A stretch of 64,000 bases of DNA, from contig OZ251979.1 of assembly GCA_965246755.1 (NCBI GenBank), positions 1,566,642 through 1,630,641 of the forward strand. The letters are read 5' to 3'. Each line of letters begins with the position of its first letter. Position 1 is the first letter of the stretch. The notes under the pieces were generated by a model. It searched no databases. It was not told the DNA's origin and worked only from the letters and a program-made list of their open reading frames with translations. Position numbers and translations under genes: made by a program. Source of the DNA: Alphaproteobacteria bacterium. Lineage in GTDB: Bacteria; Pseudomonadota; Alphaproteobacteria; UBA11073. Shown one piece after another: positions 10,250 to 58,750 of this stretch.

Positions 10250-10276
10250 AAAAGCGGGCTGCGGCCCGCTTTTTAG
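10250..10276 (+). terminator. Rho-independent terminator after cdnL
   Basis: agcgggctgcggcccgct hairpin followed by T5. Confidence 0.65.
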
Positions 10277-12826: not shown

Positions 12827-13071
12827 ATGCTAATACTTTCACTGTAATTTTTTGTCCCAAACAATTGCGCGACCCATCCGCCGATTTTTGGAAACAAGGC
12901 ATATACATGATTTTTGACTATATTATCAACGTGTTGTGCCGTGCGACATGTAATTATAAGTCCTGACTTGCCTTGTACCCGCTCAATCTCAAAATCCTGC
13001 ACCAATTCAGGCAAATCAAAGCGGTCTAAAATTTTGTAAGCGCGCAATTGCGCAGCAGTTGGACGTGGCAT
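12823..13071 (-). CDS. Small hypothetical protein between pdhC and lpdA
   Basis: 82-aa ORF with 4-nt overlaps to both neighbours (translationally coupled); no recognisable family. Confidence 0.4.
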   Translation of the reverse strand: MPRPTAAQLRAYKILDRFDLPELVQDFEIERVQGKSGLIITCRTAQHVDNIVKNHVYALFPKIGGWVAQLFGTKNYSESISI

Positions 13072-14345
13072 TACAGCAATAATCCAATTGGGTTTTCAAT
13101 AAAATCTTTAAATGCCGCGATAAACTCCGCGCCGACTGCGCCATCAACCACACGGTGATCGACGGATAATGTAACCGTCATCACAGTCGCGATTTCCAAC
13201 TTGTCATTTTTAACGATGGCACGTTTTTCACCTGCGCCAACCGCCAGAATGCAGCCCTGCGGCGGATTGATGATCGCCGCAAATTGTTTGATGCCGAACA
13301 TACCGAGGTTAGAGATGGTAAAGGTGCCGCCCTGGAATTCCTCCGGCTTTAGTTTGTTCTCACGCGCGCGCAGGCCGAGGTCTTTCATTTCTTTCGAAAT
13401 GTCCGTTAGCGATTTGCCTTCCGCTTTTTTGATGATGGGTGTCACCAGGCCGTTCGGCGTCGCGACCGCGACCGAAACATCGGCATGTTTAAACTTTAAT
13501 ATCGCGTCTTCCGTCCAGGCGGCGTTAGCGGCAGGAATTTTGATCAGTGCCGCGGCAACTGCTTTGATTACCATGTCATTGACAGAAATCTTGGCAATAG
13601 TCTGCGCAGCATTATATTGCGCGCGAATATCCAGCAATTTATCAATTTCGCAATCCACCGTCAGGTAGAAATGCGGCACATTTTGTTTGGACTCGGTCAG
13701 ACGCTTAGCGATAATTTTTCGGATCTGACTGTTTGGTTCCGCCACATAGTCCATGCCCAGCATATCGGCCAATTGTCTGGCGTTAGGGCCCGACATAGTT
13801 GGCGCATTCACTTTAGCTGACGCTACGGCGCGGTCAGCTTGTCCCTTTGGAGCAGACTCGACATCCGCCACAACGATGCGGCCATGCGGGCCGGTGCCTT
13901 TAATAGTGGCGAGGGTAACACCTTTTTCAGCCGCTATACGTTTGGCGAGTGGCGACGCGAAGACACGGGCACCAGATGAAAGTTGGAGATTAGAAATTGG
14001 AGACTGGACAGGCGCAGATTGAACGGCCGGTGACGGTGCGTTGTTGGTGGCAATTGGTGTTTCGGTTTTTTTATCCGACGTCCCGCTTCTGACTTCCATC
14101 TCACCCTCTTCCAGCAAGATGGCGATGGGCGTATTGACGGCAACACCCTCACTCCCTTCGGCAATCAGGATTTTACCGATCCTGCCCTCATCCACGGCTT
14201 CAACTTCCATGGTTGCCTTGTCAGTTTCAATTTCAGCGATGACCTGGCCGCTTTTAACAGTGTCGCCTTCTTTCACTGTCCATTTGGACAATTTGCCCTC
14301 GGTCATGGTGGGCGACAGCGCTGGCATTAAAATTTCAATACTCAT
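13071..14345 (-). CDS. pdhC: Pyruvate dehydrogenase E2 dihydrolipoamide acetyltransferase
   Basis: N-terminal lipoyl domain ([17 protein letters not shown]), E3-binding domain, catalytic domain with DHRVVDGA. Confidence 0.9.
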
Positions 14346-15184
14346 GCGAATACTTCTTTAGATGGATGTTGCGTTGATAGATAAAGACGTGGCCGTAAAA
14401 ACCAATACAAGATTGAAAATAATATTGAATTAATAAGGCAAATTAAAAAACACAATTTACCTACTTTCTGAGCGTATATAGTTAGATGTTGTAAGGTGTC
14501 AAAATTGGTAGGCAATATGAAGAAAAAATTATAAGAAATAGATGATGCAATTAGTGATGATGCACATGACGTAATTAAGAAAGACAATAAATTTGGTTTG
14601 CAAATTCTGTGGATCAAATTCCAAACAATAAAAACAACGAAAGGTACGGTTATAAAATTAGCTAATAATCCAAACGATGGCTCTACGGATCCTCCCAAAA
14701 ATTTTTCTTCAAAATTAATACATAAAAAAAGTAAAATCACATTGAATAAGCCATATACTACCAATCCAAATTCAACCAAAAAACAATAAGCTAAAATTCC
14801 AAGTTTTTTCTGTTTGAAAAAAAGCTTTCCAAACACAATTGTTGCAGGAATCAAAAACAGAAAATCAAAGGCGTAACCAATCGGCGTGCTTTGCTGACCA
14901 CCGACCGCACCAACCGCAATTATTGGCATAAAAAATAGTACGAGGATGGCCCAACCGATTAAACGGTTTTGTTTCTCTATAAAGTTGTTCCCACGTTTTA
15001 AAATTTTCCAAATTATGTTCATGATTAATGGAAATATCAAAAGCGGGATTAAAATAAAATACCCAAAAAAAAGTCCTGAATATACAAATAATGTTGATCC
15101 GCCACCCATTAATGCGACAAACAAAGAATACAGAGACACATAGATAGCTTCATTTTTCTGCAAAAGATTAAATTTAATAAGCAT
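14342..15184 (-). CDS. Hypothetical polytopic membrane protein (AT-rich) inserted between pdhB and pdhC
   Basis: 280-aa ORF, ~8 predicted hydrophobic helices, Phe/Leu/Ile-rich; GC far below flanks; overlaps pdhB stop (TAATG) and pdhC start (ATGA). Confidence 0.55.
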
Positions 15185-16563
15185 TATTTGTTACAGACTT
15201 GCTTCACAGCCGCGACAATATCTTCCACCTGCGGCAATGCCAGATGCTCAAGATTGGCGGCATAGGGCAATGGCACATCTTTCGCGCAGACGCGCGCGAC
15301 CGGCGCATCCAGATAATCAAAGGCATGTTCCATCATCAGCGCCGCCATTTCGGAGCCGATACCGTAAGAAGGCCAGCTTTCCTCAACAGACACCAGGCGG
15401 TTGGTTTTCTTGACACTTTTAACAATCGTGCCGACATCGAGCGGGCGGATGGTGCGCAGGTTAATGACCTCCGCATCTATCCCCTGCTCCGCCAATTGTT
15501 CAGCGGCCTGCAACGCCTTACCGACCATAATTGAATAGGCCGTGATAGTGACATCTTTACCTGCGCGTTCAACCTTAGCCTTGCCAATCGGCAGCACATA
15601 GTCTTCATCCGTCGGCACATCAAACGATTGGCCATACATCATTTCGTTTTCGAGAAAGACCACCGGGTTGGGGTTACGGATGGCCGTCTTCATTAGTCCC
15701 TTGCAGTCCGCGGCCGACCATGGCGCGACGACCAACAGGCCCGGGATATGCCCGTACCAGCTGGCGTAGCATTGTGAATGCTGCGCGCCGACGCGCGACG
15801 CCGCGCCATTGGGGCCGCGGAAAACAATCGGGCAGCCCATCTGGCCGCCCGACATATATAATGTCTTGGCGGCAGAATTGATAATATGGTCAATCGCCTG
15901 CATGGCAAAATTCCAGGTCATGAATTCCACAATCGGTTTTAAACCGCCGAAGGCCGCGCCAACACCAAGACCTGCAAAACCATGTTCCGTGATCGGCGTA
16001 TCAATAACGCGGGTTGGGCCGAATTCATCCAGCAAGCCTTGGGATACCTTGTAAGCGCCGTTGTATTCGGCAACTTCCTCACCCATCAAAAAGACGGTTT
16101 TATCGGCGCGCATTTCTTCAGCCATTGCATCGCGCAAGGCTTCACGGACGGTTTGGTTTTTGACGTCTTTAAAAAAACGCGTCTCATCAAAATCGTCATC
16201 AGCGAACGTCATGTGCTGCTCGGGGTAATCGGTTTTGAGGGCAGTAGCAGCGGCAGCACTAGGTTCACCCAAATCTTTAATTTGCGGTACAGCTTGCGCA
16301 GGTGCAGCAGAGACTGTTTCACCTGCGGCGCCCAACACGGCGATTGGCGCATTGACCGCCACGGCTTCCGTGCCTTCCGGCACCAGGATTTTTAGCAACG
16401 TGCCTTCATCAACTGCCTCGACCTCCATGGTCGCTTTGTCGGTTTCAATTTCGCACAGGACCTGGCCACTTTTAACGGCGTCGCCTTCCGCCTTCAGCCA
16501 GCGAGCGATTTTGCCCTCGGTCATCGTCGGCGACAGCGCCGGCATTAAAACATCAATGGTCAT
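15184..16563 (-). CDS. pdhB: Pyruvate dehydrogenase E1 beta subunit with N-terminal lipoyl domain
   Basis: N-terminal lipoyl domain [22 protein letters not shown]...[17 protein letters not shown], then transketolase-like E1-beta. Confidence 0.9.
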
Positions 16564-16575
16564 TTCAAAATATCC

Positions 16576-17547
16576 TTAAGCAGCCTTTAACACGTCAGTC
16601 CATAAATCTTCCAGCGGCGGTTCCGGCGATTGTTTGGCAAATTCGACCGCCTCCAGGCAGATGGTTTTAATGCGGTCTTCAATTTCTTTAAATCCTGCTT
16701 CATCCAGCATTTTTTTGTCGGTTAGATATTTGCGCAGGCGTTCAATCGGGTCGCGCTGTTCGCGGGTCTCTTCCAGCTCTTCTTTGGTGCGATATTTGGC
16801 GGGGTCTGACATTGAATGCCCGCGATAACGATAAGTTTGAATTTCCAGCAAGACGGGCCCTTTCCCGCTGCGGATATAATCCATGGCATCGTTGGCAGCT
16901 TTGCGCACTGCCAGCACATCCATACCATCGACCTGTTCGCCCGGGATGCCATAGGCCTCGCCGCGTTTATAAAGTTCGCCCGCAGCATGGCGCGCCTGCG
17001 AGGTGCCCATGCCATACTTATTATTTTCAATGACAAACAGCGCCGGCAATTTCCACAGCGCCGCCATATTAAATGTCTCATACACTTGGCCCTGGTTAGA
17101 GGCGCCATCCCCCATATAGGCGACATTGACGCCGCCATCATTATTATATTTGTGCGCGAAGGCCAGACCGGCGCCAATCGGGATTTGCGCGCCGACAATA
17201 CCGTGCCCGCCGTAAAAGTTTTTTTCGCGGCTGAACATATGCATGGAGCCGCCCTTGCCGCGTGAATAACCGCCGCTGCGCCCGGTAAGTTCTGCCATAA
17301 CACCCTTGGCATCCATGCCACAGGCCAGCATATGGCCGTGGTCGCGGTAGGCGGTAATCACACTGTCTTGGGATTGCTGAACGGAATTGATACCGACGAC
17401 GACGGCTTCTTGGCCAATATACAAATGGCAAAAACCGCCGATAAGGCCCATGCCATAAAGCTGCCCAGCGCGTTCTTCAAACCGCCGGATCAGCAGCATG
17501 TCTTCAAACAGTTTTAACAGCAGTTGTTTATTTTTATGATCGGCCAC
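16576..17547 (-). CDS. pdhA: Pyruvate dehydrogenase E1 alpha subunit
   Basis: RRFEERAGQLYGMGLIGGFCHLYIGQEAV...; TPP-binding GDG..NQG motif. Confidence 0.9.
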   Translation of the reverse strand: MADHKNKQLLLKLFEDMLLIRRFEERAGQLYGMGLIGGFCHLYIGQEAVVVGINSVQQSQDSVITAYRDHGHMLACGMDAKGVMAELTGRSGGYSRGKGGSMHMFSREKNFYGGHGIVGAQIPIGAGLAFAHKYNNDGGVNVAYMGDGASNQGQVYETFNMAALWKLPALFVIENNKYGMGTSQARHAAGELYKRGEAYGIPGEQVDGMDVLAVRKAANDAMDYIRSGKGPVLLEIQTYRYRGHSMSDPAKYRTKEELEETREQRDPIERLRKYLTDKKMLDEAGFKEIEDRIKTICLEAVEFAKQSPEPPLEDLWTDVLKAA

Positions 17548-21364: not shown

Positions 21365-23095
21365 TTACATCTGTTCAACTGGCGCAACGCCAATAATATT
21401 CAATCCAGCCGCGATGACAAGCGCCGTTGCACGCAGCAAAGCCAGCCGCGCCGCGGTTAAGCCCGGATTTTCGGGTTGCAGAAAACGCAGCGTGGCATCA
21501 TCCCTGACCCCAGTCCACAGCTGGTGAAAGGCGGCCGCCGCCTCCATCAGATAAAACGAAAAGCGGTGTGGTTCGTGCAGATCCGCCGCTGTCTCGACCA
21601 GGCGCGGCCAGCCGGCCAGCAGCTTGATCAATGACAGTTCTTCCGGCGCGACCAGCACTGACAGGTCTGCCGCCGTCAGATCGGTATCGGCAATTTTCAA
21701 TTGCGGCAACTGTTCCGCCGCATGCCGCAACACCGAACAGATCCGTGCATGCGCATATTGAATATAAAAAACCGGATTATCTTTGGACTGTTCGGTCACC
21801 TTGGCAAAATCAAAATCGAGCGTTTGGTCTTGGCGGCGCGTTAGCATGATCAGCCGCACGACATCCTTGCCGACCCGCTCCACAACGTCTGATAGGAACA
21901 CCAGGTTACCGGCGCGTTTGGATAGTTTAACCAGCTGACCGTTTTCGAGCAGTCGCACCAGTTGCACGGTTTTGATATCCAGCGCCGCCTGTTGGCCGCT
22001 GACCGCACGTGTCGCCGCGATGATGCGTTTGACATAACCCGCATGATCGGCACCGAACACATTGGCCATTAGCTTAAAGCCGCGCTGGAATTTATCGAAA
22101 TGACAGGCGACGTCGGAGGCAAAATAGGTCCAGCTGCCATCGCTTTTCTTAAGCGGCCGATCGACATCATCGCCAAAATCGGTGGCGCGGAATAAGTACT
22201 GGTCGCGCGGCTCCCAATCCTCAGGCTTTTCACCTTTGGGCGCCTCCAGCTGGCCGAAATAAATATGCCCGTCCGCCTGCAGCTTATCAAACGCAGCCTG
22301 CACGGCGCCGCTTTCCACCAAGTGGCGTTCCGATAACACCACGTCCTGCACAATTCCCAGCAATTCCAGATCTGCCTTGATGATCTTCATCATCTCATCA
22401 ATGGCGAATGCGCGTACCAGCGGCAGCCATTCGTCTTCGGCGGCATTCAGCCAAGTGTCGCCTTCGCGCGCCGCGAGCGCCTGGCCCACCGGTATCAGAT
22501 ATTCACCCGGGTAACAGCCGTCAGGAATGGTGACGGTTTCGCCCAATGCCTCGCGGTAACGCAAATAGACCGAGCGCGCCAAGACATTCACTTGATTGCC
22601 GTAATCATTCAAATAATATTCGCGGCATACTTTATATCCAACGAATTCTAATAAATTGCATAAAGCATCGCCAAACACCGCGCCGCGCGCGTGTGATGCT
22701 AAAAGCGGTCCGGTTGGATTGGCGGACACATATTCCACATTAAACGGCTGCCCTTGGCCCACATCCGCTGCGCCGTAGCGCGCACCGCTTTGCAAAATCG
22801 TTTTTACCTGGCCTTGCCAAAAACTGGGTGACAGCTGCAGATTGATAAAACCGGGTCCAGCTACCGTTACGTCAGTCACTTGCGGATGCGATTTTAAACG
22901 CGCTGCCAATTGTTCCGCCAACGCGCGCGGATTTTGCCCAGCGGGTTTCGCCATAACCATAGCGGCATTGGTCGCCATATCACCATGCGCGGCATCTTTC
23001 GGTGCCTCAACCGTGATTTTATCCAGCGGCAGGTTCGGCAGCAGTACAGCCATTTCCTGCTGCACAAATAATTTCACATCCTGGAAAATATTCAT
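21365..23095 (-). CDS. argS: Arginine--tRNA ligase
   Basis: 576 aa; GPGFINL, HIGH-like region, C-terminal DALR anticodon-binding domain ending ...VAPVEQM. Confidence 0.9.
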   Translation of the reverse strand: MNIFQDVKLFVQQEMAVLLPNLPLDKITVEAPKDAAHGDMATNAAMVMAKPAGQNPRALAEQLAARLKSHPQVTDVTVAGPGFINLQLSPSFWQGQVKTILQSGARYGAADVGQGQPFNVEYVSANPTGPLLASHARGAVFGDALCNLLEFVGYKVCREYYLNDYGNQVNVLARSVYLRYREALGETVTIPDGCYPGEYLIPVGQALAAREGDTWLNAAEDEWLPLVRAFAIDEMMKIIKADLELLGIVQDVVLSERHLVESGAVQAAFDKLQADGHIYFGQLEAPKGEKPEDWEPRDQYLFRATDFGDDVDRPLKKSDGSWTYFASDVACHFDKFQRGFKLMANVFGADHAGYVKRIIAATRAVSGQQAALDIKTVQLVRLLENGQLVKLSKRAGNLVFLSDVVERVGKDVVRLIMLTRRQDQTLDFDFAKVTEQSKDNPVFYIQYAHARICSVLRHAAEQLPQLKIADTDLTAADLSVLVAPEELSLIKLLAGWPRLVETAADLHEPHRFSFYLMEAAAAFHQLWTGVRDDATLRFLQPENPGLTAARLALLRATALVIAAGLNIIGVAPVEQM

Positions 23096-24300
23096 TACTT
23101 ACACTCAACATTCATATCAAATAACCGGTCCCATTCCAGCATCGCGTAGTTGTCTGTCATGCCGGCAATGTAATCACAAATTATGCGCGCCTGCAGATGT
23201 GATGATGATTGGTCGCGGATCATATTATACCAGTCGGTTGGCAGCGTTTCAGGCTCTGCCAGAAAACGGTTGAACAGATCGGTTACAACCTTGCGCGCCT
23301 TGCTGGTCATGCGGTTAACCGTGTAATGGCGGTAAACCCGTTCCATCAGAAACGCGCGCAGCTGCTTGATATTTTGCTGCATACCCGATGAAAAGGCGAT
23401 GACCGCGGTTTTAGCGTGCCGCACATCGCTTGCCGATTGCGGGTTTAACCGTGACAGGCGGTCCTGACTTTCCAGCACCAGGTCTTTGACCATCACATCA
23501 ATCATGCGGCGCACTGCTTCGAATATCAGCCGTGTTTTAGCCAGCTTGGGATATTGCACCATCAGCTTTTCAATAATTTCGCCAATGATCGGCAGATCAC
23601 GAATATCATCAAAGTTAAAAAGTCCTGCACGTAGCCCATCATCAATATCATGATTGTTGTAGGCAATATCATCGGACAGCGCCGCGACCTGCGCCTCTGC
23701 CGATGCAAAGGTGCCAAGCTCCAAATTCATATAGCTTTGAAAACCATTGATGGTATGCGGCAATTGTTTGCCTTCCGCCAATGGCAGCAGCGGGCCGTTA
23801 TGCTTGACGACACCTTCTAGCGTTTCCCATGACAAGTTCAAACCATCGAAGTCCGCATAGCGGCGCTCGAGCTGCGTTAAAATCCGTAGCGCCTGATCAT
23901 TATGATTAAACCCGCCATAAGGCGCCATACATTCCTGCAGCGCATCTTCACCGGCATGACCGAACGGCGGATGCCCCAAATCATGCGCCAGCGCCACCGC
24001 CTCCGCCATATCTTCATCAAGCCCCAGCGTTCGCGCGATGCTGCGCGCGATTTGCGCGACCTCCAATGAATGCGTCAGGCGCGTGCGGTAATAATCGCCC
24101 ATATGCACAACGAAGACCTGGGTTTTTTGTTTCAACTTACGAAAGGCCGCCGAATGCACAATCCGGTCGCGGTCGCGCTGATACGGCGTTTTCATGCTGC
24201 TTTCGGCTTCCGAGTGCCGCCGTCCACGGCTGTCCAGCGGATTGACAGCATAGATCGCCCGCGGCGGCGGTTGGTATGGCGGAATTGCAGCATTATTCAT
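23095..24300 (-). CDS. dgt: dGTPase-like HD-domain triphosphohydrolase
   Basis: YQRDRDRIVHSAAFRKLKQKTQVF...RLTHSLEVAQIARSIA...AHDLGHPPFGH. Confidence 0.85.
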   Translation of the reverse strand: MNNAAIPPYQPPPRAIYAVNPLDSRGRRHSEAESSMKTPYQRDRDRIVHSAAFRKLKQKTQVFVVHMGDYYRTRLTHSLEVAQIARSIARTLGLDEDMAEAVALAHDLGHPPFGHAGEDALQECMAPYGGFNHNDQALRILTQLERRYADFDGLNLSWETLEGVVKHNGPLLPLAEGKQLPHTINGFQSYMNLELGTFASAEAQVAALSDDIAYNNHDIDDGLRAGLFNFDDIRDLPIIGEIIEKLMVQYPKLAKTRLIFEAVRRMIDVMVKDLVLESQDRLSRLNPQSASDVRHAKTAVIAFSSGMQQNIKQLRAFLMERVYRHYTVNRMTSKARKVVTDLFNRFLAEPETLPTDWYNMIRDQSSSHLQARIICDYIAGMTDNYAMLEWDRLFDMNVECK

Positions 24301-24359: not shown

Positions 24360-24689
24360 ATGACAATTACCCTTACCCCATCTGCAGTATCGCGCATTTA
24401 TGAAATCCGCGAACGGCAAGACAATCCGGCACTGAACCTGCGGTTGCGCGTGGATGGCGGCGGCTGCGCGGGGTTTCAATATATTTGGACGTTTGATGAC
24501 CAGACCCATGGCGATGATCACAAAATCAGTGATGGTGATGCCAACCTGTTAATTGATGACGTATCGTTGGAATTCGTGAGCGGCGCCAAGATTGATTTTG
24601 TGCGCGATCTGCTGGGTGATTATTTCGCGGTAGACAACCCCAATGCGGACAGCGGTTGCGGCTGCGGCACCAGTTTTTCCGTGAAATAG
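24360..24689 (+). CDS. erpA: Iron-sulfur cluster insertion protein, HesB/IscA/ErpA family
   Basis: 109 aa; LRLRVDGGGCAGFQY and C-terminal CGCGTSFSV. Confidence 0.8.
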   Translation: MTITLTPSAVSRIYEIRERQDNPALNLRLRVDGGGCAGFQYIWTFDDQTHGDDHKISDGDANLLIDDVSLEFVSGAKIDFVRDLLGDYFAVDNPNADSGCGCGTSFSVK

Positions 24690-24694
24690 TTCTT

Positions 24695-25465
24695 ATGAAA
24701 ATTGCCACCTGGAATATTAACTCCGTCCGCCTGCGCGCGGCGATGGCGGTAGAATGGCTATCCACCAATAACATCGATGTCATTTGTTTCCAGGAACTCA
24801 AATGCCAGAACGACCAGTTTCCCAAAGATGTGTTTGAACAAGCTGGCTATTTGCATCAGGCCGTTGTCGGGCAAAAGGCGTGGAATGGTGTCGCGGTGCT
24901 GTCCAAACAGCCACTGGAGATTATCAGCACCACCTTACCCGGTGACAATACCGACAGCCATGCCCGTTACCTGGAAGTTGCTATCAATGATGTTCGCATC
25001 ATTAACATCTATGCGCCGAATGGTAACCCGGTCGGCACTGAAAAATTTCCCTATAAGCTGACGTGGTTGGCGCGGCTTTATGCTCATGCCGCGCAGTTGC
25101 GCAAAGACAATTTGCCGTTTTTAATTTGCGGCGATTTCAACATTATCCCTGAAGCCATCGATTGTTATGATCCCAAAGTCTGGCAGGATGACGCGCTGTT
25201 CCGACCGGAGACGCGCAAATTGTGGCGCAGCCTGTGTAATCTGGGGCTGACCGATGCGGTGCGGGTATTTTATCCCACCCAAAAATTATACAGCTTTTGG
25301 GATTACACCGGCGGCGCACGCCAGCGAAATTTAGGCATTCGCATTGATCATTTTTTAACGTCGCCACAACTGACCGACCGTATTATCAACACCGTTATCG
25401 ACGACAGCCCGCGCGACCTTGAAAAACCGTCAGATCACGTGCCAGTGATTTTAGAGTTAACTTAG
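24695..25465 (+). CDS. xthA: Exodeoxyribonuclease III
   Basis: MKIATWNINSVRLR...CFQELK; start set at the ATG at 24695 rather than the overlapping upstream ORF start. Confidence 0.85.
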   Translation: MKIATWNINSVRLRAAMAVEWLSTNNIDVICFQELKCQNDQFPKDVFEQAGYLHQAVVGQKAWNGVAVLSKQPLEIISTTLPGDNTDSHARYLEVAINDVRIINIYAPNGNPVGTEKFPYKLTWLARLYAHAAQLRKDNLPFLICGDFNIIPEAIDCYDPKVWQDDALFRPETRKLWRSLCNLGLTDAVRVFYPTQKLYSFWDYTGGARQRNLGIRIDHFLTSPQLTDRIINTVIDDSPRDLEKPSDHVPVILELT

Positions 25466-25484
25466 TTGCTCTTGGAAGAATTTA

Positions 25485-25637
25485 GCCTCCCCCTTGTGGG
25501 GAGGCACAAAAATTAAAGGCGGCGCGCAGCAAAGCCATGTAATTTTTGGGTGGGGGACTTAATTTAAATCTACCAACCCCCACCCAAATTTTCATCGCTA
25601 CGCTGGAAAATTTGTGCCTCCCCACAAGGGAGGAGGC
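25485..25637. repeat. MITE-like compound palindromic element, copy A
   Basis: Outer hairpins gcctcccccttgtggggaggc and gcctccccacaagggaggaggc are inverted relative to each other; inner inverted repeat ttgggtggggg...cccccacccaa. Confidence 0.75.
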
Positions 25638-25658
25638 TGCACAGCGCTCAACATCAAT

Positions 25659-26804
25659 CTATCGCGTTGGACTATTCAAATCCCCGCCCACCGAAAATTC
25701 AGACAAATTAACAAAAGTTGATTTATCCTGGATAACTGCTTGCGGGATGATTTGCGGGCTATGCGTTTTGGCGATGTCCGGCATTTTTTTAACCGCGGTG
25801 CCAATCGCCATAAATTCAATGATGCCGTTGCCCAGATCATAAACATAGGTCTGCACGCCGAGGATATCATCGGCGCCGGCTTTATCCGCCTCCTGCTTTA
25901 ACTTATCAAAGGCGTTTTCGCGCGCGTCGTAAATAAGTGAGGTGAGTTCAGAAATCTCGCCGCGCACAAAGGATTTTATCATGCTGGTAAAACCGCCGAT
26001 AAAACCCAGCGAATAAACCGAAACACCCATGCACAGCCGCAGCGGCATATAGCCCATCGCGATTACATTCCACATCTCTTCATTGGTGAGATCACTAGTG
26101 ATGGGACTCTTGGTATGCAACGCAGGCAAATTCTCATGATAGGATGCCGTGCCGATCATCAACATTTCTACGACGCCGCCCTGAAACGGCAGGATCGAGG
26201 TTTTGATGCCGACCACGGCATTGGCGCCCACACCGCGCGCATCTTCGACAATGCGTTGCAACGCCAGATGCCGCGTATTATTGAACACCTGGCTGAATTC
26301 GGTAATTTCGCCGCGCCCGAGGCTACGCAACATGCCGAACAAGCCGCCGCCGAGACCGAGCGCATAGGCCACATTGCCGAAAGCAAAGCTGATCGGCTGG
26401 AACCCGCAATCTAGCTGACAGTATAACTCTTGGCCATCAGCTGAGGTTGAAAATTTATAATTTTCAGCGCTTTCGACACCTTTGGTATGCAACGCCGAAC
26501 CGATGCTCAAGAATTCGATATTCGGGCCATGCTGGACAATAGTGGAAGACACCCCAGTAATACCGCGGCTCCCGTGTTTCTTGGCCTCATTCTGTAACCG
26601 CTGGAATGACTCCAGCCGTCCTTCATGAATAACATTGGTGACCTGGGTTACCTCGCCGCCGATAAAGGTTTTGATGCCGGAGCCTAGGCTGCCCAAAAAG
26701 CCCAGTGAAAAAACGCTGTTACCGACCACGATATTGCCGGGCGCATAGCCCTTTTGGTCTAAACAATATAATTCATTGCCGGACAGCCCGGTGACAATCG
26801 CCAT
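25659..26804 (-). CDS. Triplicated YbjQ/UPF0145 (DUF74) domain protein
   Basis: Three tandem ~120-aa units, each with a G(G/R)GE(V/I)T/S..S...(ar)...A...L...A...GA(N/D).(V/I)(V/L)G(V/I) pattern typical of YbjQ. Confidence 0.7.
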   Translation of the reverse strand: MAIVTGLSGNELYCLDQKGYAPGNIVVGNSVFSLGFLGSLGSGIKTFIGGEVTQVTNVIHEGRLESFQRLQNEAKKHGSRGITGVSSTIVQHGPNIEFLSIGSALHTKGVESAENYKFSTSADGQELYCQLDCGFQPISFAFGNVAYALGLGGGLFGMLRSLGRGEITEFSQVFNNTRHLALQRIVEDARGVGANAVVGIKTSILPFQGGVVEMLMIGTASYHENLPALHTKSPITSDLTNEEMWNVIAMGYMPLRLCMGVSVYSLGFIGGFTSMIKSFVRGEISELTSLIYDARENAFDKLKQEADKAGADDILGVQTYVYDLGNGIIEFMAIGTAVKKMPDIAKTHSPQIIPQAVIQDKSTFVNLSEFSVGGDLNSPTR

Positions 26805-26836
26805 TAAAGTAAAACTCCAAACTATCCGTTATGTAT

Positions 26837-26973
26837 TCCTCTCCCTAGCAGGGAGAGGATAGAAACTCTTCGCGCACGCGTAGCATAAGCGGTTAGAATT
26901 TCTTGGTGAAGGGTGATTATAACAACCCCTCACCCGCCCCTAAAGGGGCACCCTCTCCCTCAAAGGGAGAGGG
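26837..26973. repeat. MITE-like compound palindromic element, copy B
   Basis: cctctccctagcagggagagg ... tgaaggg/cccctca ... cccgcccctaaaggggcaccctctccctcaaagggagaggg; right half ~85% identical to copy D. Confidence 0.75.
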
Positions 26974-27028
26974 AAAGTTGACCACCAATTGTATATTTTT
27001 CCCAGCAGAATCGCAATAAAACGATTTT

Positions 27029-27718
27029 ATGCCCGTTTACACATTATTCATCCTTGCTTGCATCATTTTACCCTATCTGATTGGTTCTATACCATTTGGA
27101 CTGATCCTGACCCGCGCCGCAGGCCTGGGCGATGTGCGTAAGATCGGCTCCGGCAATATTGGCGCAACCAACGTGCTGCGCACTGGGCGTAAGGACTTAG
27201 CGATTGCGACATTATTATGCGACGCGGCGAAGGGTGCGCTGGTCATTATCGCTTATCGCTATTTTATCGAACACAAGGTTATGCCGCAGATGGATTATTA
27301 TATGGGCATCACCTTTGGTGGCACACCTGCGCAAAAAGAACTTGTACAATGGTTGCCCTATGTGCCGCTGCTGGCGGGCGGCATGGTCATCATCGGCCAT
27401 ATGTTTTCCATTTGGCTGCGCTTTAAAGGCGGCAAGGGCGTTGCCACCTCGCTCGGCGTCATCACGGCGGTCAGCTGGCCGGTGGGAGTGGCAGCTTTTG
27501 GTACCTGGTTGCTGGTTGCTTTTGTCAGCCGTTATTCATCCCTGTCAGCAATGGCCGCCGCCGCCGCCGCGCCAATCTATGCCTGGTATTTTACCGACCA
27601 CGTAACCGCCCTTGCCTTTCTGGGTATTGCACTGCTCGTAATCACGAGGCATTACAAAAATATCAGAAATTTGCTGCAAGGCGCTGAAGCAAAAATTAAA
27701 TTAAAAAATTCCGTTTAG
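27029..27718 (+). CDS. plsY: Glycerol-3-phosphate acyltransferase PlsY
   Basis: GSIPFGL...GSGNIGATNVLR...KGGKGVAT motifs. Confidence 0.85.
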   Translation: MPVYTLFILACIILPYLIGSIPFGLILTRAAGLGDVRKIGSGNIGATNVLRTGRKDLAIATLLCDAAKGALVIIAYRYFIEHKVMPQMDYYMGITFGGTPAQKELVQWLPYVPLLAGGMVIIGHMFSIWLRFKGGKGVATSLGVITAVSWPVGVAAFGTWLLVAFVSRYSSLSAMAAAAAAPIYAWYFTDHVTALAFLGIALLVITRHYKNIRNLLQGAEAKIKLKNSV

Positions 27719-27996
27719 GGTTCGGATTTTGAACTCGTATTAAATTTTCTGATCATATTAACGTTGGTTTTTTTAGGTTTCATAATTATATCGTTTCCAG
27801 ACAAAACCTTAGTAAAAGAAGCTCTGTTTAATGGTGCGGTTATATTGTCATAGCTTGAATTATTGGATTTATGTAAAGAGTATACAGCAGCAGCAATAGG
27901 AGGAATACCAATAACAACTCCAATAAAAAATCCAGATACGATATGTGGAGCTATTTTTTTATTAGACATGTAGTTTTTCATAACATAAAATAGCAT
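27715..27996 (-). CDS. Hypothetical small single-TM protein (AT-rich)
   Basis: 93-aa ORF in a low-GC patch between plsY and dprA; one hydrophobic helix. Confidence 0.3.
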   Translation of the reverse strand: MLFYVMKNYMSNKKIAPHIVSGFFIGVVIGIPPIAAAVYSLHKSNNSSYDNITAPLNRASFTKVLSGNDIIMKPKKTNVNMIRKFNTSSKSEP

Positions 27997-28083: not shown

Positions 28084-29250
28084 TTGGGGGGCCTCATGCC
28101 GGTTACACCAGACACATATATAATAAGTGAGGCCGAGCGGCTGGCCTGGTTGCGCCTGTCGCGCAGTGAAAATGTCGGCCCCATCACCTTTAACCGCCTG
28201 CTGCGGCAATTCGGCTCTGCCGTCCGGGCGCTGGACGCCATCCCTGACCTGGCCCGCCGCGGCGGGCGCCTGCAAAAACTGAAGATCCAAAGTGAGGCGG
28301 ATGGCCGCGCGGAAATCCAGGCCCTTACCAAACTGGGGGCCCGGCACCTGTTATCCTGTGATGCCGCTTACCCCGCCATCCTGCGCCATTTGGAAGATGC
28401 GCCGCCGGTTTTGACGGTGAAGGGCAATCCGGCGCTGCTCGAAAAACCGATGGTCAGCATCGTGGGCGCGCGGAATGCCTCGCTGCCCGGCCGGCGCATG
28501 GCGGAAATTCTAGCCGCAGAATTGGGCCAAGCCGGCTATACTATCGTCTCCGGTCTCGCGCGCGGGATTGATACCGCCGCGCATGGCGCTAGCCTTACCG
28601 ACGGTACAGTGGCCGTGGTCGCGGGCGGTATTGATATTGTTTATCCGGCGGAAAACCAAACCCTGTATGACAAGATTTGCGCGCAAGGTATTGTAATTGC
28701 GGAAAATCCGCCAGGGGTGCCGCCCACCAACCGTGACTTTCCCCGCCGCAACCGCATCATCTCCGGCCTCGCCCTCGGCACCGTCATTGTCGAGGCTGCG
28801 CTGAAATCCGGCTCGCTCATCACCGCGCGTTATGCGCTGGAGCAAGGGCGCGAAGTGTTTGCCATCCCCGGCTCGCCCCTTGATCCGCGCGCCGGCGGTA
28901 CCAATAAATTAATCAAGGATGGCGCAACCCTGGTGGAAAGCGCCGCCGACATTATAAATGTGTTGCGAAATATGCAGGAACCAACCGCCCTTGCCGAGCC
29001 GTGGCAAACCTACCGCAATGCGCCGCTGCAATATGATGATAATGCCGTGGCGGTCGCACGGCGGCGCACGCTGACCGATTTGCTATCCTTCACCCCCGTA
29101 ACGCTGGATGAAATCCTGCGCACGGGCGAGGTCAATCCGGCGGCGCTCCACACTGCCCTGCTCGAACTTGAACTCGCCGGGCGCGCCCAGCGCCTGTCCG
29201 GCAACCGCGTTATTTTGGCGACTGATGATACAGAAATGAAGGCAATGTAA
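28084..29250 (+). CDS. dprA: DNA processing protein DprA (Smf)
   Basis: Rossmann-like DprA core IVSGLARGIDTAAHGASL..., C-terminal winged-helix region. Confidence 0.85.
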   Translation: MGGLMPVTPDTYIISEAERLAWLRLSRSENVGPITFNRLLRQFGSAVRALDAIPDLARRGGRLQKLKIQSEADGRAEIQALTKLGARHLLSCDAAYPAILRHLEDAPPVLTVKGNPALLEKPMVSIVGARNASLPGRRMAEILAAELGQAGYTIVSGLARGIDTAAHGASLTDGTVAVVAGGIDIVYPAENQTLYDKICAQGIVIAENPPGVPPTNRDFPRRNRIISGLALGTVIVEAALKSGSLITARYALEQGREVFAIPGSPLDPRAGGTNKLIKDGATLVESAADIINVLRNMQEPTALAEPWQTYRNAPLQYDDNAVAVARRRTLTDLLSFTPVTLDEILRTGEVNPAALHTALLELELAGRAQRLSGNRVILATDDTEMKAM

Positions 29251-31904
29251 TGGCACAAGATAACCTCGTCATCGTCGAAAGTCCGGCCAAAGCTAAAACC
29301 ATCGAAAAATATCTGGGGCCGGATTATAAAGTCCTCGCCAGTTTCGGGCATATCCGCGATCTGCTGCCCAAAGATGGCGCGGTGCGCCCCGATGAAGACT
29401 TCGCGATGGATTGGGTGCTGGGCGACCGTGCTCATAAAAATGTCAAAGAGATTGAACGCGCCGTTAAAACCTCTAAAACATTATATCTTGCGACCGACCC
29501 GGACCGCGAGGGCGAGGCCATTTCCTGGCATGTCAAAGAATATCTGGATGAAAAGAATTTATTAAAAGGCCGCACTATTCATCGCGTCACTTTTAACGAA
29601 ATTACCAAAAGCGCGATTCAGACTGCGTTTAAGCAGCCGCGGGAAATCAATGCCGAGCTGGTTGAAGCTTATCTGGCGCGCCGCGCGCTGGATTTTTTAG
29701 TCGGCTTTAACCTGTCGCCGATTTTGTGGCGCAAATTGCCGGGCGCACGGTCGGCGGGGCGGGTGCAGTCGGTCGCGCTGCGCCTCATCTGCGAACGTGA
29801 ATTTGAAATTGAACAGTTTAAGCCCCAAGAATATTGGTCAGTTGAAGCGCTGTTTCAAACGAATAGCGGCGCCACTTTTACCGCGCGGCTAACGCATTTT
29901 GACGGCCAAAAACTGGACAAATTTGCCATCAATAACGAAACGCGCGCGCAAGAGATTCTAGCCGCATTGCAAAAACAAAATTTTACCGTCAGCGATGTGA
30001 CGAAGAAAGAAGTCAAACGTCATCCGGCCGCGCCATTTATTACCTCAAGCTTGCAGATGGAAGCGTCACGCAAACTCGGTTTCGGCGCTAGCCAAACCAT
30101 GCGCACCGCGCAAAAACTTTATGAAGGCGTGACGCTGGGCGGCGAAACGGTCGGACTTATCACCTATATGCGGACTGATGGCGTGCAATTGTCCCAAGAT
30201 GCAATCTACTCCTGCCGCACGACGATTGATAAATTGTACGGCCAGGATTATTTGCCGGAACAACCACGCATCTATTCATCAAAAGCCAAAAACGCGCAGG
30301 AAGCGCATGAGGCAATTCGCCCCACCGATCTCGCGCGTACGCCTGATTACGTCGCCAAATATGTCGATCATGATCAGGCGCGGTTGTATGAATTGATCTG
30401 GAAACGCACGTTGGCCGCGCAGATGGCTAGCGCGGTTCTGGACCAGGCTACCGTCGATATTACCGGCACGAACAAGGCGGCGTTCCGCGCCACCGGTTCG
30501 GTGGTGAAATTCGACGGGTTTTTTAAACTCTATTTTGAAGATACTGACGATATGCCGTCTGACAGTGAGGATAATCGCCGCTTGCCGCCGCTGACTGTCA
30601 AAGACGCGTTGCAGACGAACAGCATTAAACCCGAACAGCATTTCACGCAGCCGCCGCCACGTTTCAGCGAGGCGTCGCTGGTCAAGGCCTTGGAAGAGCT
30701 TGGCATCGGCCGCCCTTCTACCTATGCCTCGATCATCCAGGTGTTGCAGGACCGCAATTATGTGCGGCTCGATAAAAAGCGTTTTGTGCCCGAAGATCGC
30801 GGGCGGATTGTCACAACCTTCCTTACCAATTTTTTCCGCCGTTATGTGGAATATGATTTTACCGCCGCGCTTGAAGGCCAGCTGGATGAAATTTCCGCCG
30901 GCGCGTTGGATTGGAAAGACATGCTGCGCAAATTCTGGGTCGAATTTATCGGCGCGGTCGATGAAACCAAACCACTTACCATCACGCAGGTGATTGATGT
31001 GCTGGATGCGGAGCTGGATAAGTTTTTATTTCCGCCGCGCGCAGATGGCAGTGATCCGCGCAAATGTCCGCGTGATAGTGGTCGCCTTGGTTTAAAGCTC
31101 GGTAAATTCGGCGCCTTTGTCGGCTGCTCGAATTATCCGGAGTGCAAAGAAACGCGGCCATTGGGTCTCGCCGAAAGCGCCGCCGCTGCCAACGGCGGCG
31201 GTGTGTTTGAACCGCGTGAAATCGGCATTGATCCTGACAGTGGTGAAGTTATCACCATCAAGCTTGGCCCCTATGGCCCTTATCTCGAACGGCCTAATGG
31301 TGACAACAAGCCCAAACGCGCGTCGTTGACGCCCGGCACCAACCTGGATGCCATTACGCTGGAAGATGCCGTCAAATTATTATTGCTGCCGCGCGAGGTG
31401 GGGATTTTCCCCGAAACCGGCGATCCGATTTACGCCAACGTCGGCCGGTTCGGGCCCTATATTCAAACCGGTAAATTGCTGGCGTCATTGCCCAAGGGTG
31501 AAACGGCGCAGGATATCGGCCCCAACCGCGCGGTGGATATTTTGATGGAGAAAATTGCGCGCAGCCTGCCGGTTAAAGAATTGGATAATCATCCAGACGA
31601 TGATGCGCCAATCGGCATTTATCGTAGCCGGTTTGGTTTTGTCATTCGTCATAATGATATCGAGGCGCGCCTTGCCAAAGGCACCGACCCACAAGACATC
31701 GACAGTGCCACCGCCATTTTGTTATTAAAGCAGATGGGCAAACCGGCGTTCAAATTTGGCAAGAAAAAGGGCAAAGGTAAAACCACCGCGCCAAAGAAAA
31801 CAGCTGTTAAAAAAACCGCCGTGAAAAAGACAGCTGCCAAAAAAACTGCCGCTAAAAAATCTGCGGTAAAAAAGACCGCCGCTAAGCAAGTTACGGCAAA
31901 ATAA
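29250..31904 (+). CDS. topA: DNA topoisomerase I with C-terminal Lys-rich (VKKTA)n tail
   Basis: TOPRIM N-terminus (LVIVESPAKAKTIEKYLG), catalytic Tyr region, C-terminal Zn-ribbon-like repeats, terminal KKTAVKKTAVKKTAAKKTAAKKSAVKKTAAK. Confidence 0.9.
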   Translation: MAQDNLVIVESPAKAKTIEKYLGPDYKVLASFGHIRDLLPKDGAVRPDEDFAMDWVLGDRAHKNVKEIERAVKTSKTLYLATDPDREGEAISWHVKEYLDEKNLLKGRTIHRVTFNEITKSAIQTAFKQPREINAELVEAYLARRALDFLVGFNLSPILWRKLPGARSAGRVQSVALRLICEREFEIEQFKPQEYWSVEALFQTNSGATFTARLTHFDGQKLDKFAINNETRAQEILAALQKQNFTVSDVTKKEVKRHPAAPFITSSLQMEASRKLGFGASQTMRTAQKLYEGVTLGGETVGLITYMRTDGVQLSQDAIYSCRTTIDKLYGQDYLPEQPRIYSSKAKNAQEAHEAIRPTDLARTPDYVAKYVDHDQARLYELIWKRTLAAQMASAVLDQATVDITGTNKAAFRATGSVVKFDGFFKLYFEDTDDMPSDSEDNRRLPPLTVKDALQTNSIKPEQHFTQPPPRFSEASLVKALEELGIGRPSTYASIIQVLQDRNYVRLDKKRFVPEDRGRIVTTFLTNFFRRYVEYDFTAALEGQLDEISAGALDWKDMLRKFWVEFIGAVDETKPLTITQVIDVLDAELDKFLFPPRADGSDPRKCPRDSGRLGLKLGKFGAFVGCSNYPECKETRPLGLAESAAAANGGGVFEPREIGIDPDSGEVITIKLGPYGPYLERPNGDNKPKRASLTPGTNLDAITLEDAVKLLLLPREVGIFPETGDPIYANVGRFGPYIQTGKLLASLPKGETAQDIGPNRAVDILMEKIARSLPVKELDNHPDDDAPIGIYRSRFGFVIRHNDIEARLAKGTDPQDIDSATAILLLKQMGKPAFKFGKKKGKGKTTAPKKTAVKKTAVKKTAAKKTAAKKSAVKKTAAKQVTAK
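31791..31885 (+). repeat. 15-bp tandem repeat (~6 units) encoding the (V/A)KKTA pentapeptide tail of TopA
   Basis: Units gttaaaaaaaccgcc / gtgaaaaagacagct / gccaaaaaaactgcc / gctaaaaaatctgcg / gtaaaaaagaccgcc. Confidence 0.8.
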
Positions 31905-35875: not shown

Positions 35876-36045
35876 CCGCCTCTCCCTGCAGGGAGAGGCC
35901 GAAATACTTAGCGTTAGCGCGCAGCGCCAAGCTTAGTATTTTGGGTGAGGGGGACATTACTAAGCGCAAAACTTTATAATTGACCAAAATCCAAATTCCC
36001 CCTCATCCGGCCTATCGGCCACCTTCTCACTGCAGGGAGAAGGGC
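35876..36045. repeat. MITE-like compound palindromic element, copy C
   Basis: cctctccctgcagggagagg; tgaggggga...tccccctca inverted repeat; cttctcactgcagggagaag. Confidence 0.75.
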
Positions 36046-36924: not shown

Positions 36925-37437
36925 TTATGATTCTGGTGCAGGCGTAGATGAGGGTATTGGTGATGATGTTTGAGTAACAGCATCACTTCCCTGCAAAATG
37001 TTAACAGCATTAAAGTCAGTTGCAGTACGCCTAAATGGGTTAGGAGTACTTTTTACGCGGGCCGCCTTTAACTCGGTAAATTTTTCGTACCTATATTCTT
37101 CCCAAGATAAACCGTCATCGTTAATTGCGGCAACTAATTTGTTAACATCTTTTAAATTACTAACGCGAGACAGTGTATCTGTTAAGTAATTAACTTTTGG
37201 CTCAATTAGTAAATCTGGAATTATTTTCACGCGGTGTGCTAGCTCTTGAACTGCATCCACAAGACCATCTTCATTGATCTGTTTATCTAGGCCCATGTCG
37301 AGTTCACGAACAATATTCAATATGGTGCTAATAAGACCAAGAGTTGGCGATTTTGTTCTAAATGCACGACTTGCCCATGACCCGCTTTGAAATTCTCCGT
37401 AAGCTTTTAAGTTTTCATTTTCAAAATCAAAAGACAT
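36925..37437 (-). CDS. Hypothetical protein (AT-rich)
   Basis: 170-aa ORF in a low-GC patch between cysQ and prfB; no family recognised. Confidence 0.4.
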   Translation of the reverse strand: MSFDFENENLKAYGEFQSGSWASRAFRTKSPTLGLISTILNIVRELDMGLDKQINEDGLVDAVQELAHRVKIIPDLLIEPKVNYLTDTLSRVSNLKDVNKLVAAINDDGLSWEEYRYEKFTELKAARVKSTPNPFRRTATDFNAVNILQGSDAVTQTSSPIPSSTPAPES

Positions 37438-44109: not shown

Positions 44110-44775
44110 ATGGCAACTCAGAACAAAAATAATCTTTTATCCGAAATCACTGACGGTCTTGGCGATGCAATGGACGCATTCCAAAAACGTTGGGCGGACG
44201 GCGCCGGTACGGGACGCGGCAAATCTGCCAGCAAATCGTCAAGCCGCAGCACCTCCAGCCGGACTGGCGCGCGCAAAACCACTGCAAAAAAATCCAGCAC
44301 CGGCACGCGCAGCACAACTGCAAAAAAACCGACCGCTAAAAAATCAACGGCCAAAAAAACCACTGCCAAAAAATTAACTGCTGGCCGTAAAGCGACTACC
44401 ACCGCGCGCAAGGCAACCACTGCTGCCAAACGCAGCACAACTGCCACCCGCAAAACCGGCAGCGGCACGGCGCGTAAATCTGGTACTGCCGCACGCAGCA
44501 CCGCAAAAAAATCCACGGTGCGCAAGTCAACTGCCGGTAAGGCTACCAGCCGCACTGCCGGCAGCAAAGCCGCTGCCCGCAAGTCAACTGGCAGCAAAAC
44601 AACTGCACGTAAATCAACTACAAGTCGCAGCAGCACGACAGGACGTAAAGCCACCACTGCGGCACGCAAAGCAGTTTCAACTGCGAAACGTGCTATTGGT
44701 CGTGCAACGACTGGCCGTAAAACCGCTGGTCGCCCGTCAACGGCAAGCCGCACCGGTAGCAGCCGCAGCAGATAA
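44110..44775 (+). CDS. Histone-H1-like, highly basic low-complexity protein (A/T/K/R/S repeats)
   Basis: 221 aa; after a ~40-aa N-terminal region the rest is (A/T)(K/R)K(S/T)T-type repeats; followed by a strong terminator. Confidence 0.6.
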   Translation: MATQNKNNLLSEITDGLGDAMDAFQKRWADGAGTGRGKSASKSSSRSTSSRTGARKTTAKKSSTGTRSTTAKKPTAKKSTAKKTTAKKLTAGRKATTTARKATTAAKRSTTATRKTGSGTARKSGTAARSTAKKSTVRKSTAGKATSRTAGSKAAARKSTGSKTTARKSTTSRSSTTGRKATTAARKAVSTAKRAIGRATTGRKTAGRPSTASRTGSSRSR

Positions 44776-44795
44776 TTTCATCTGTGATATTTTTA

Positions 44796-44825
44796 AAAAG
44801 CGGGCTGTGGCCCGCTTTTTTTTAT
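44796..44825 (+). terminator. Rho-independent terminator
   Basis: aaaaagcgggctgtggcccgc hairpin plus T9. Confidence 0.7.
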
Positions 44826-46400: not shown

Positions 46401-46799
46401 ATGATTAACTTAATAGATAAATCTAGGGAGATACAAATGAACCGGAGAGACCAGCTATTAAATGTTATTGGCATAATAGAAGATTATTTGAATTCTTTTG
46501 AATTTTGGGTGACCCGTGACGAAGACCTTACTTTGTTACTTAAGGCTGATAAGTGTTTTGAAAGCTTTCCCCGTCAAGAACAGGCTATTTTTAAAAAATT
46601 TGGTATTAATGTAACAGTAGAAGGAACTTTGTTGCGGTTGGATACGACGCAAGAAAATTTGAAAAGTAATCTTAGTAAGATGGTTTCTTATCGAGGAGGT
46701 TTTAATTGGGGACGCGTAAAAACTTTGCCAGAACCGCGACGAAATGATGCGCGTGTGTTTAGAAATGCTAGCCAATGGGGTGGCTGGGTTGGCCCTTAA
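46401..46799 (+). CDS. Hypothetical protein (AT-rich)
   Basis: 132-aa ORF in a low-GC patch; no family recognised. Confidence 0.3.
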   Translation: MINLIDKSREIQMNRRDQLLNVIGIIEDYLNSFEFWVTRDEDLTLLLKADKCFESFPRQEQAIFKKFGINVTVEGTLLRLDTTQENLKSNLSKMVSYRGGFNWGRVKTLPEPRRNDARVFRNASQWGGWVGP

Positions 46800-47276: not shown

Positions 47277-47316
47277 TAAAGTTTATAACAAAATATGTAT
47301 TACGCGCGAAGGACTT

Positions 47317-47441
47317 CCTTCTCCCTTTTAGGGAGAAGGTGGTGTGCAGCGCCGGATGAGGGGTATGATTAAGTTTAGAGAGATGAAATTACCCCCCTTA
47401 CCCGCCGCTAAAGGGGTACCCTGTCCCTAAAAGGGAGAGGG
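47317..47441. repeat. MITE-like compound palindromic element, copy D
   Basis: ccttctcccttttagggagaagg ... gatgagggg/cccccctta ... cccgccgctaaaggggtaccctgtccctaaaagggagaggg. Confidence 0.75.
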
Positions 47442-47463
47442 AAAATTTACAGTATATAGTGAA

Positions 47464-58270: not shown

Positions 58271-58750
58271 TTAAGCAGCAAGGCTGAGAGTCAAATCAGC
58301 ATTACGTTTTTGATACCGTAGTCGCTGTAAAGTATTTTGACTTTTGCCAGCCACCCCAAATGCTTCTAAAAGCTGCAAACGTACAGCAGGCAAACCCGCG
58401 CTTTCACTAGCTTCAGAAATAACGCCAACAATTTCATCCTTAGACATATCTTGTTTTGCGAACACACTGGCAAACATATGTTTATCAAAATCATCACAAT
58501 CCTCATAATAATGTTTGCACAATTCACCAAAAAACAGGGTGAGCGCTTTCATATCATCCGTGCAAAAAGCAGGAGTGATTACCACACGCTGTAAACTTTG
58601 CAGATATATGGATCCGTCAATGTTAAGATCGCCTATTAATCTACGCGCGTGTTTAATATCGCGCTCTTCCAGATTCTGCAGCCATCGCTCGGCCAGCATA
58701 CTATTTAATTTATCAGATGGTACAAAATCCCTAATTTTACTGGTGGTCAC
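58271..58750 (-). CDS. Hypothetical protein (AT-rich)
   Basis: 159-aa ORF in a low-GC patch; no family recognised. Confidence 0.4.
   Translation of the reverse strand: MTTSKIRDFVPSDKLNSMLAERWLQNLEERDIKHARRLIGDLNIDGSIYLQSLQRVVITPAFCTDDMKALTLFFGELCKHYYEDCDDFDKHMFASVFAKQDMSKDEIVGVISEASESAGLPAVRLQLLEAFGVAGKSQNTLQRLRYQKRNADLTLSLAA

Follow-up and report, generated by a model that had tools for sequence, protein, structure and literature searches.

Between xthA and plsY, in the 64,000-nucleotide stretch of a 1.93-Mb alphaproteobacterial genome that we analysed (hereafter, the window), lies a gene for a protein made of three fused YbjQ units, here called ybjQ3, with a palindromic element in the spacer on each of its sides. 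The explanation that best accounts for the locus as a whole, and which we consider probable, is that of an intact, stand-alone three-repeat YbjQ gene inserted long ago at the xthA-plsY junction, with copies of a structured repeat in the spacers and with the roles for protein and repeats that are proposed below.

YbjQ/UPF0145 is an old family of the “structure known, function unknown” kind. Its three-repeat form shows an unusual conservation over distant phyla, but the gene stands alone and its context offers no clue to a role. The question of wider appeal is what role such a slowly evolving three-repeat YbjQ plays, and how three units assemble as against the five-fold arrangement of their single-domain relatives. 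The locus also shows, in a clean form, what appears to be an insertion of the gene at a conserved housekeeping junction (xthA on one side, plsY-dprA-topA on the other), and it documents a lineage-specific family of nested-hairpin repeats. Our results correct the impression, left by an initial annotation of this DNA, of a rare architecture and of a gene mobilised by repeats, and they leave the current understanding unchanged.

The gene and its three units

The gene and its surroundings comprise the following features:

23095..24300, minus strand: dgt (Pfam)
24360..24689, plus strand: erpA-like gene (Pfam)
24695..25465, plus strand: xthA, exodeoxyribonuclease III, left neighbour (Pfam Exo_endo_phos; homologues so named by their sources)
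25659..26804, minus strand: ybjQ3, three-repeat YbjQ/UPF0145 protein, 381 aa plus stop codon, ATG start (ORF list, PF01906, colinearity with homologues)
26481..26804, minus strand: YbjQ unit 1, aa ~1-108 (41 bits alone on PF01906)
26133..26450, minus strand: YbjQ unit 2, aa ~119-224 (52 bits alone; same order of helices and strands as unit 1)
25785..26096, minus strand: YbjQ unit 3, aa ~237-340 (59.5 bits alone; aligns to PDB 2gtc and 1vr4)
25662..25784, minus strand: conserved C-terminal tail of ~40 aa, aa 341-381 (invariant residues in 48 sequences; low-confidence model from about aa 362)
26815..26818, minus strand: GGAG Shine-Dalgarno-like motif, 10 nt 5′ of the ybjQ3 ATG (read from the sequence)
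27029..27718, plus strand: plsY, glycerol-3-phosphate acyltransferase, right neighbour (Pfam G3P_acyltransf, 175.8 bits)
28084..29250, plus strand: dprA (Pfam)
29250..31904: topA, after dprA

The reading of this 381-aa open reading frame as three YbjQ units, made in the initial annotation, is borne out by the domain scan. The YbjQ_1 model (PF01906) matches the protein in three stretches with a total of 143.4 bits (cut-off 23, E 4e-42), and each third taken separately still scores above that cut-off (41, 52 and 59.5 bits). NCBIfam models of the YbjQ type match three stretches of the product as well, with scores below their equivalog cut-offs. The units are joined by linkers of 10-12 aa. In an alignment of four sequences, the three units and the E. 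coli YbjQ protein, unit 1 is 27% identical to unit 2, 34% to unit 3 and 23% to E. coli YbjQ, and identities within the set span 23-34%. No N-terminal signal-like segment can be read in the sequence of the protein. The gene has a GC content of 0.511 and a GC3 of 0.60, with a codon-usage distance of 0.084 as compared with a window mean of 0.112; its codon usage is fully host-like.

Single-domain YbjQ/UPF0145 (DUF74) proteins, such as E. coli/Shigella YbjQ (1y2i) or Bacillus cereus BC_1816 (1vr4, 2gtc), are chains of ~103-111 aa, in keeping with the norm of about 105 aa from which the initial annotation had started, and homopentamers have been reported for 1y2i, 1vr4 and 3qkb (PMC2954204, PMC4092069). 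The window protein departs from this pattern in that three diverged units are fused in one 381-aa chain, each with a helix in place of the canonical first strand, and in that the three-repeat family has its own invariant glutamates and conserved tail. Several units per chain also occur in two other proteins with tandem YbjQ_1 domains, one of 627 aa with five canonical units (P0306) and one of 460 aa with four (P0315), whose units score ~93 bits each, whereas the diverged ones of the three-repeat family score 41-60 bits. Since the ring of the solved single-domain proteins is five-fold, a five-unit chain fits it and a three-unit chain does not. Among eukaryotes, C2CD5 carries five YbjQ-like domains, of the Pfam types YbjQ_2 and YbjQ_3 (PMC13635605).

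A large family spread over distant phyla

The three-unit architecture may give an impression of rarity. Database comparison indicates that it is not unusual at all, and that it defines a large, highly conserved and already annotated family. A word-indexed search retrieved at least 4207 proteins at E <= 0.001, and the best 120 of them all measure 375-470 aa (most of them 376-410), are 60-66% identical to the window protein and, in nearly all cases, cover 97-100% of it colinearly. Their sources name these homologues “heavy metal-binding domain-containing protein”, “YbjQ family protein” or “uncharacterized protein YbjQ (UPF0145 family)”. An exhaustive search of representatives clustered at 50% identity gave 1581 matches at E <= 0.001 and 102 at E <= 1e-30; several dozen in this set are full-length three-unit proteins, with identities down to ~31%. 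Relatives are encoded in at least 530 genome stretches from contigs representing one genome per species, and the best 80 of these loci belong to Armatimonadota, Cyanobacteria, Melainabacteria/Obscuribacterales, Legionella, Acidobacteria, Planctomycetota, Eremiobacterota and one Bacillota MAG.

Three-repeat proteins of ~376-410 aa from Armatimonadota, Cyanobacteria, Legionella and others are 99-100% colinear with the window protein and have the same units and tail, and by these features (full-length colinearity, three units and tail) the latter can be classed as a member of the three-repeat YbjQ subfamily. It differs from the other members in forming an isolated branch, in an alphaproteobacterium, that is equidistant from every group (59-65% identity) and has no close relative. 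No alphaproteobacteria appear among the named homologues listed, nor in the best 80 of the at least 530 genome loci.

Mean identities within the family are 54-67% between phyla and ~70-79% inside phyla, figures by which the family diverges slowly between phyla. Because the units of one chain are only 27-34% alike, whereas the same unit keeps ~60% or more across phyla, the triplication is older than the radiation of the family.

Structure model and conserved residues

An AlphaFold2 model of the ybjQ3 protein, built on 48 homologues, reached a mean pLDDT of 82.9 and a pTM of 0.82. All three units are modelled with one common succession of elements (a helix, a long strand, two helices of which the second is long, and two strands), which in unit 1 correspond to helix 9-17, strand 20-33, helices 37-48 and 53-76, and strands 81-92 and 95-107; the YbjQ-like fold, that of a dodecin-like subunit, is recognisable in the protein. 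Low confidence is limited to a glycine-rich segment in each unit and to the last ~20 residues, with pLDDT below 50 at aa 362-381. The initial annotation had raised the question of whether the units form an intramolecular pseudo-oligomer, and the model answers half of it, as the pTM of 0.82 speaks for three units that pack in a defined manner.

In an alignment of 48 three-repeat sequences (mean column identity 73%), eight glutamates are invariant: E11, E51, E97, E166, E213, E243, E283 and E330. They occupy three columns of the four-sequence alignment, one set per unit, at which the E. coli YbjQ sequence has Q, R and L. Two cysteines, C14 of unit 1 and C129 of unit 2, are also invariant, each placed in the N-terminal helix of its unit, and the tail has its own invariant residues in the 48 sequences (T347, Q355, A356, D360, T363, N366 and L376).

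A family of nested-hairpin repeats

The palindromic elements that the initial annotation placed on each side of ybjQ3 are indeed present, and they belong to a family with four copies in the window:

25484-25638: repeat copy A, in the spacer between xthA and ybjQ3, whose 3′ ends converge (perfect 20-nt inverted arms, fold z)
26837-26982: repeat copy B, in the spacer between ybjQ3 and plsY, whose 5′ ends diverge (terminal hairpins, fold z)
35877-36045: repeat copy D, between apaG and a gene of the inositol-monophosphatase family (sequence and hairpin scan; neighbours by Pfam)
47315-47450: repeat copy C, between murA and a UPF0262 gene (UPF0262 by Pfam)

Copy A begins 18 nt past the xthA stop codon and ends 20 nt before that of ybjQ3, and its 20-nt arms (25491-25510 and 25611-25630) are a perfect inverted match. 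Copy B, which stands 32 nt upstream of the ybjQ3 start codon and 46 nt short of that of plsY (ATG in both), has terminal hairpins at 26837-26859 and 26951-26973, with arms of 21 nt that are 86% complementary. Folded as DNA, copy A reaches -51.3 kcal/mol (z -10.1 against shuffled sequence), and the z values of B, D and C are -8.3, -6.5 and -4.9, respectively. When the whole spacers are folded as RNA, that of A gives -95.6 kcal/mol (z -8.2) and that of B -92.4 kcal/mol (z -6.7), A in the shape of one long stem and B as a string of five hairpins.

A hairpin scan together with a profile search found exactly these four copies in the 64 kb, all of them intergenic; the profile was built from copies A-D themselves and recovered no fifth one. 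The family measures ~140-170 bp (copies of 136-169 bp), has arms of 20-26 nt and follows a modular plan in which two terminal hairpins, the first of the type CCTCTCCC-loop-GGGAGAGG, enclose a spacer, then a central hairpin of the type GGGTGAGGGG...CCCCTCACCC and then a small one. All pairs align better than shuffled controls, with z values from 4.2 to 18.3. The highest value is that of B and C, which are 88% identical over 57 nt, and A is the most diverged copy (A-B 6.1, A-D 8.5; B-D 10.1). The earlier description of A and B as copies of one repeat stands insofar as they are related (z 6.1), but they have diverged and are not close copies of each other. Nor is their pairing special to ybjQ3, given that C and D sit in unrelated spacers.

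A further copy occurs in L085, one of the two nearest relatives of the host that we found, in the spacer between argS and dgt (nhmmer E 1e-10). Its occurrence in L085 makes the family older than the split of these lineages, and the loci that it occupies differ between the window and L085. In a more distant relative (L083), the homologues of murA and of the UPF0262 gene abut without any spacer, and copy C therefore also looks like an insertion.

Structured intergenic repeats of bacteria include REP/BIME, ERIC and Correia/NEMIS sequences and the palindromic elements of Rickettsia. The window family resembles them all in being short, multi-copy, intergenic in the copies seen and made of nested palindromes with terminal inverted repeats; it differs in having no Rfam match, no target-site duplication found and no associated transposase identified. 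With five out of five copies intergenic, strong folds and dispersal in a relative, it is a REP/ERIC-like structured intergenic repeat. Of the features expected from a MITE, the terminal inverted repeats, the small size and the copy number (four in 64 kb plus one in L085) were found, and target-site duplications were not. Comparison of spacers and elements with Rfam gave sub-threshold chance matches only, and for the module found in B and C alone the metagenome collection yielded no exact match. A generic two-hairpin pattern was tried and discarded as uninformative on the repeat family, as it retrieves at least 120 mostly high-GC contigs that have in common only the searched hairpins.

A possible role for the elements beside ybjQ3

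The initial annotation had offered hairpins serving as promoter and terminator of the gene. On this account, A would be a bidirectional terminator and B a promoter or a 5′ regulatory leader, as their positions invite one to think: A separates two converging 3′ ends and as RNA forms a single long stem (-95.6 kcal/mol, z -8.2), B stands between divergent starts, and transcription from a minus-strand promoter-like match 5′ of B (27016 to 26988) would produce B as a structured leader. However, a consensus scan found no site with a stem and T-run in A on either strand, and the region holds three terminator-like sites where 2.4 are expected, the only one inside an element being weak, on the minus strand and in B, upstream of ybjQ3. 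Promoter-like matches are likewise at chance level (2 against 2.2 expected, none significant), the spacers have no Rfam counterpart, and C and D lie between co-directional genes, where such a promoter-terminator pair is not needed. We regard this account as rather unlikely.

A role as RNA 3′-end hairpin or insulating structure is plausible by likeness to REP-type elements only. Copy A would supply a very stable 3′ stem-loop to both convergent transcripts, giving a REP-like protection, delimitation or insulation of the RNA ends and not a canonical terminator, and copy B, in the divergent control region, could insulate the ybjQ3/plsY pair.

Gene order in relatives and the origin of ybjQ3

The host has no close relatives in the databases (its best XthA match is 59% identical, and the named matches are from Rhodospirillales and Micavibrio). 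In the two nearest relatives that we found, xthA and plsY are adjacent, a point that the initial annotation had thought worth looking at. The gap is 9 bp in L081, whose plsY directly succeeds xthA and is 47% identical to that of the window, and 82 bp in L085, where the order is argS-dgt<->xthA-plsY-dprA-topA. The XthA proteins of L081 and L085 are 77% identical to each other and 58-59% to that of the window. These two are thus sisters and count as one observation, which means that synteny alone fails to separate gain from loss. In four more distant relatives dgt is found beside xthA, with erpA between them in three of the four (L083 has no erpA there), and in none of the four does ybjQ3 follow xthA, other genes being found downstream of it.

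The segment that is missing from the xthA-plsY junction of the relatives amounts to 1563 bp, with the elements at both its ends. Given the adjacency of xthA and plsY in the two nearest relatives, ybjQ3 looks inserted, and its host-like codon usage implies that any transfer was old; a recent horizontal transfer is ruled out by composition. Taking synteny together with the lack of alphaproteobacteria among the named homologues listed, a gain of ybjQ3 in the window lineage appears to be the simpler reading.

The opposite possibility, that ybjQ3 was ancestral at the site and was deleted once in the ancestor of L081 and L085, draws on the same sister relationship, under which, judged by synteny alone, a single loss is no less parsimonious than a single gain, and on a composition that is indistinguishable from that of the host. 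Against this, the gene is near xthA in zero out of four more distant alphaproteobacterial relatives, alphaproteobacteria are absent both from the named homologues listed and from the best 80 genome loci, and the window protein, equidistant from each phylum, has no close relative, all of which makes an ancestral presence followed by loss unlikely.

According to the old gain that we favour, ybjQ3 would have entered the junction of xthA and plsY in this alphaproteobacterial lineage, in an orientation opposed to theirs, and the two new spacers would then, or simultaneously, have been taken by copies of the lineage-wide nested-hairpin repeat. Since the opposite-strand ybjQ3 separates plsY from xthA, plsY must presumably have a promoter of its own, in the 224-bp spacer that holds B.

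Mobilisation of the gene by the flanking elements, the other proposal of the initial annotation, is unsupported. No direct repeats of at least 4 nt occur within 10 nt of the ends of A, C or D, nor around the unit from A to B, and the flanks of B show only a 5-nt direct repeat, TGTAT, offset by 7 nt. Neither a transposase nor a second copy of the cargo was found in the 64-kb window of the 1.93-Mb genome. Depending on the number of spacers counted as available, 0.18-0.92 adjacent copy pairs are expected, and the fact that two of four copies flank one gene is not statistically remarkable. A composite MITE transposon, in which A and B were recognised jointly by a transposase and ybjQ3 was the cargo brought into the xthA-plsY junction, is very unlikely: multi-copy elements with terminal inverted repeats do lie at both junctions of the 1563-bp segment missing from the relatives, and the nearest homologues of the gene, among the matches listed, are in other phyla, but the likeness between A and B is distant (z 6.1, while B-C reaches 18.3), A and the unit from A to B lack flanking direct repeats of at least 4 nt, copies C, D and that of L085 have no cargo, the fully host-like codon usage makes any event old, no full-length homologue occurs on plasmids or phages in the collections searched, and the pairing falls in the expected range.

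Other structured or extra sequences were seen around this gene cluster. The 82-bp xthA-plsY spacer of L085 (5772-5853 of that locus) is a long palindrome of different sequence, with arms AGAAGCTAGAGGCTAGAAGCTAGA, which suggests that the junction draws structured elements in that lineage too. A 93-aa open reading frame on the minus strand (27715-27996), with a hydrophobic segment and no Pfam match, fills the 365-bp gap between plsY and dprA; as these two genes abut in L085, it may represent another small insertion into this conserved cluster. PlsY itself (gene 27029-27718) has at residues ~84-110 an insertion of 27 aa with respect to its L081 orthologue.

Possible function of the protein

In the literature searched we found no experimental function for any YbjQ protein. 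The idea of YbjQ as an analogue of ThiE can be discarded as a misprint for YjbQ, which is a different family: one paper attributes thiamin phosphate synthase activity to “YbjQ”, while both the source that it cites and the legend of its own figure have YjbQ (PMC7084401). This misprint could mislead annotation. Gene context gives no hint either, since clustering of open reading frames in 74 loci of three-repeat ybjQ revealed no conserved neighbour and the recurring ones are lineage-specific only. A PADLOC scan for defence systems returned nothing meaningful.

The family name “heavy metal-binding” is a prediction, for which the invariant glutamates and cysteines are suggestive only. With low confidence, and by likeness to other dodecin-like assemblies, we propose that the ybjQ3 protein could be a soluble, cytoplasmic single-chain pseudo-oligomer with a dodecin-like YbjQ fold, which might bind a cation or a small ligand through the family-specific invariant glutamates at equivalent positions of its units. 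A bolder version, which we think unlikely to hold, would make of the three-repeat YbjQ a single-chain ring or arc of non-five-fold order, where the eight glutamates and the two cysteines form one asymmetric site for a cation or small ligand. If true, it would give a domain family with structures solved since 2005 its first function that is concrete and testable, and the 54-67% identity between phyla would reflect a tightly constrained binding machine, spread by occasional transfer.

Other features of the window

Five open reading frames of the window are poor in GC (14342-15184, 36925-37437, 46401-46799, 58271-58750 and 62728-63525), with GC of 0.32-0.42 and GC3 of 0.27-0.34 as compared with window means of 0.51 and 0.55, and their codon usage is deviant; they may be recently acquired or orphan genes. 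Two near-identical 26-nt palindromes (AAAAGCGGGCTGCGGCCCGCTTTT), at 10250-10275 and 44794-44819, resemble bidirectional intrinsic terminators. A repeat with a period of 15 nt (31785-31897) encodes the Lys/Ala-rich C-terminal tail of TopA, of the KKTAAKK type, and a similar repeat occurs 12.5 kb away (44314-44381) in another reading-frame context. Finally, the stretches 14115-14360 and 16333-16578, 2218 bp apart, are 75-80% identical and lie at the 5′ ends of two apparent paralogues on the minus strand (13071..14345 and 15184..16563), which bracket the open reading frame of lowest GC in the window.
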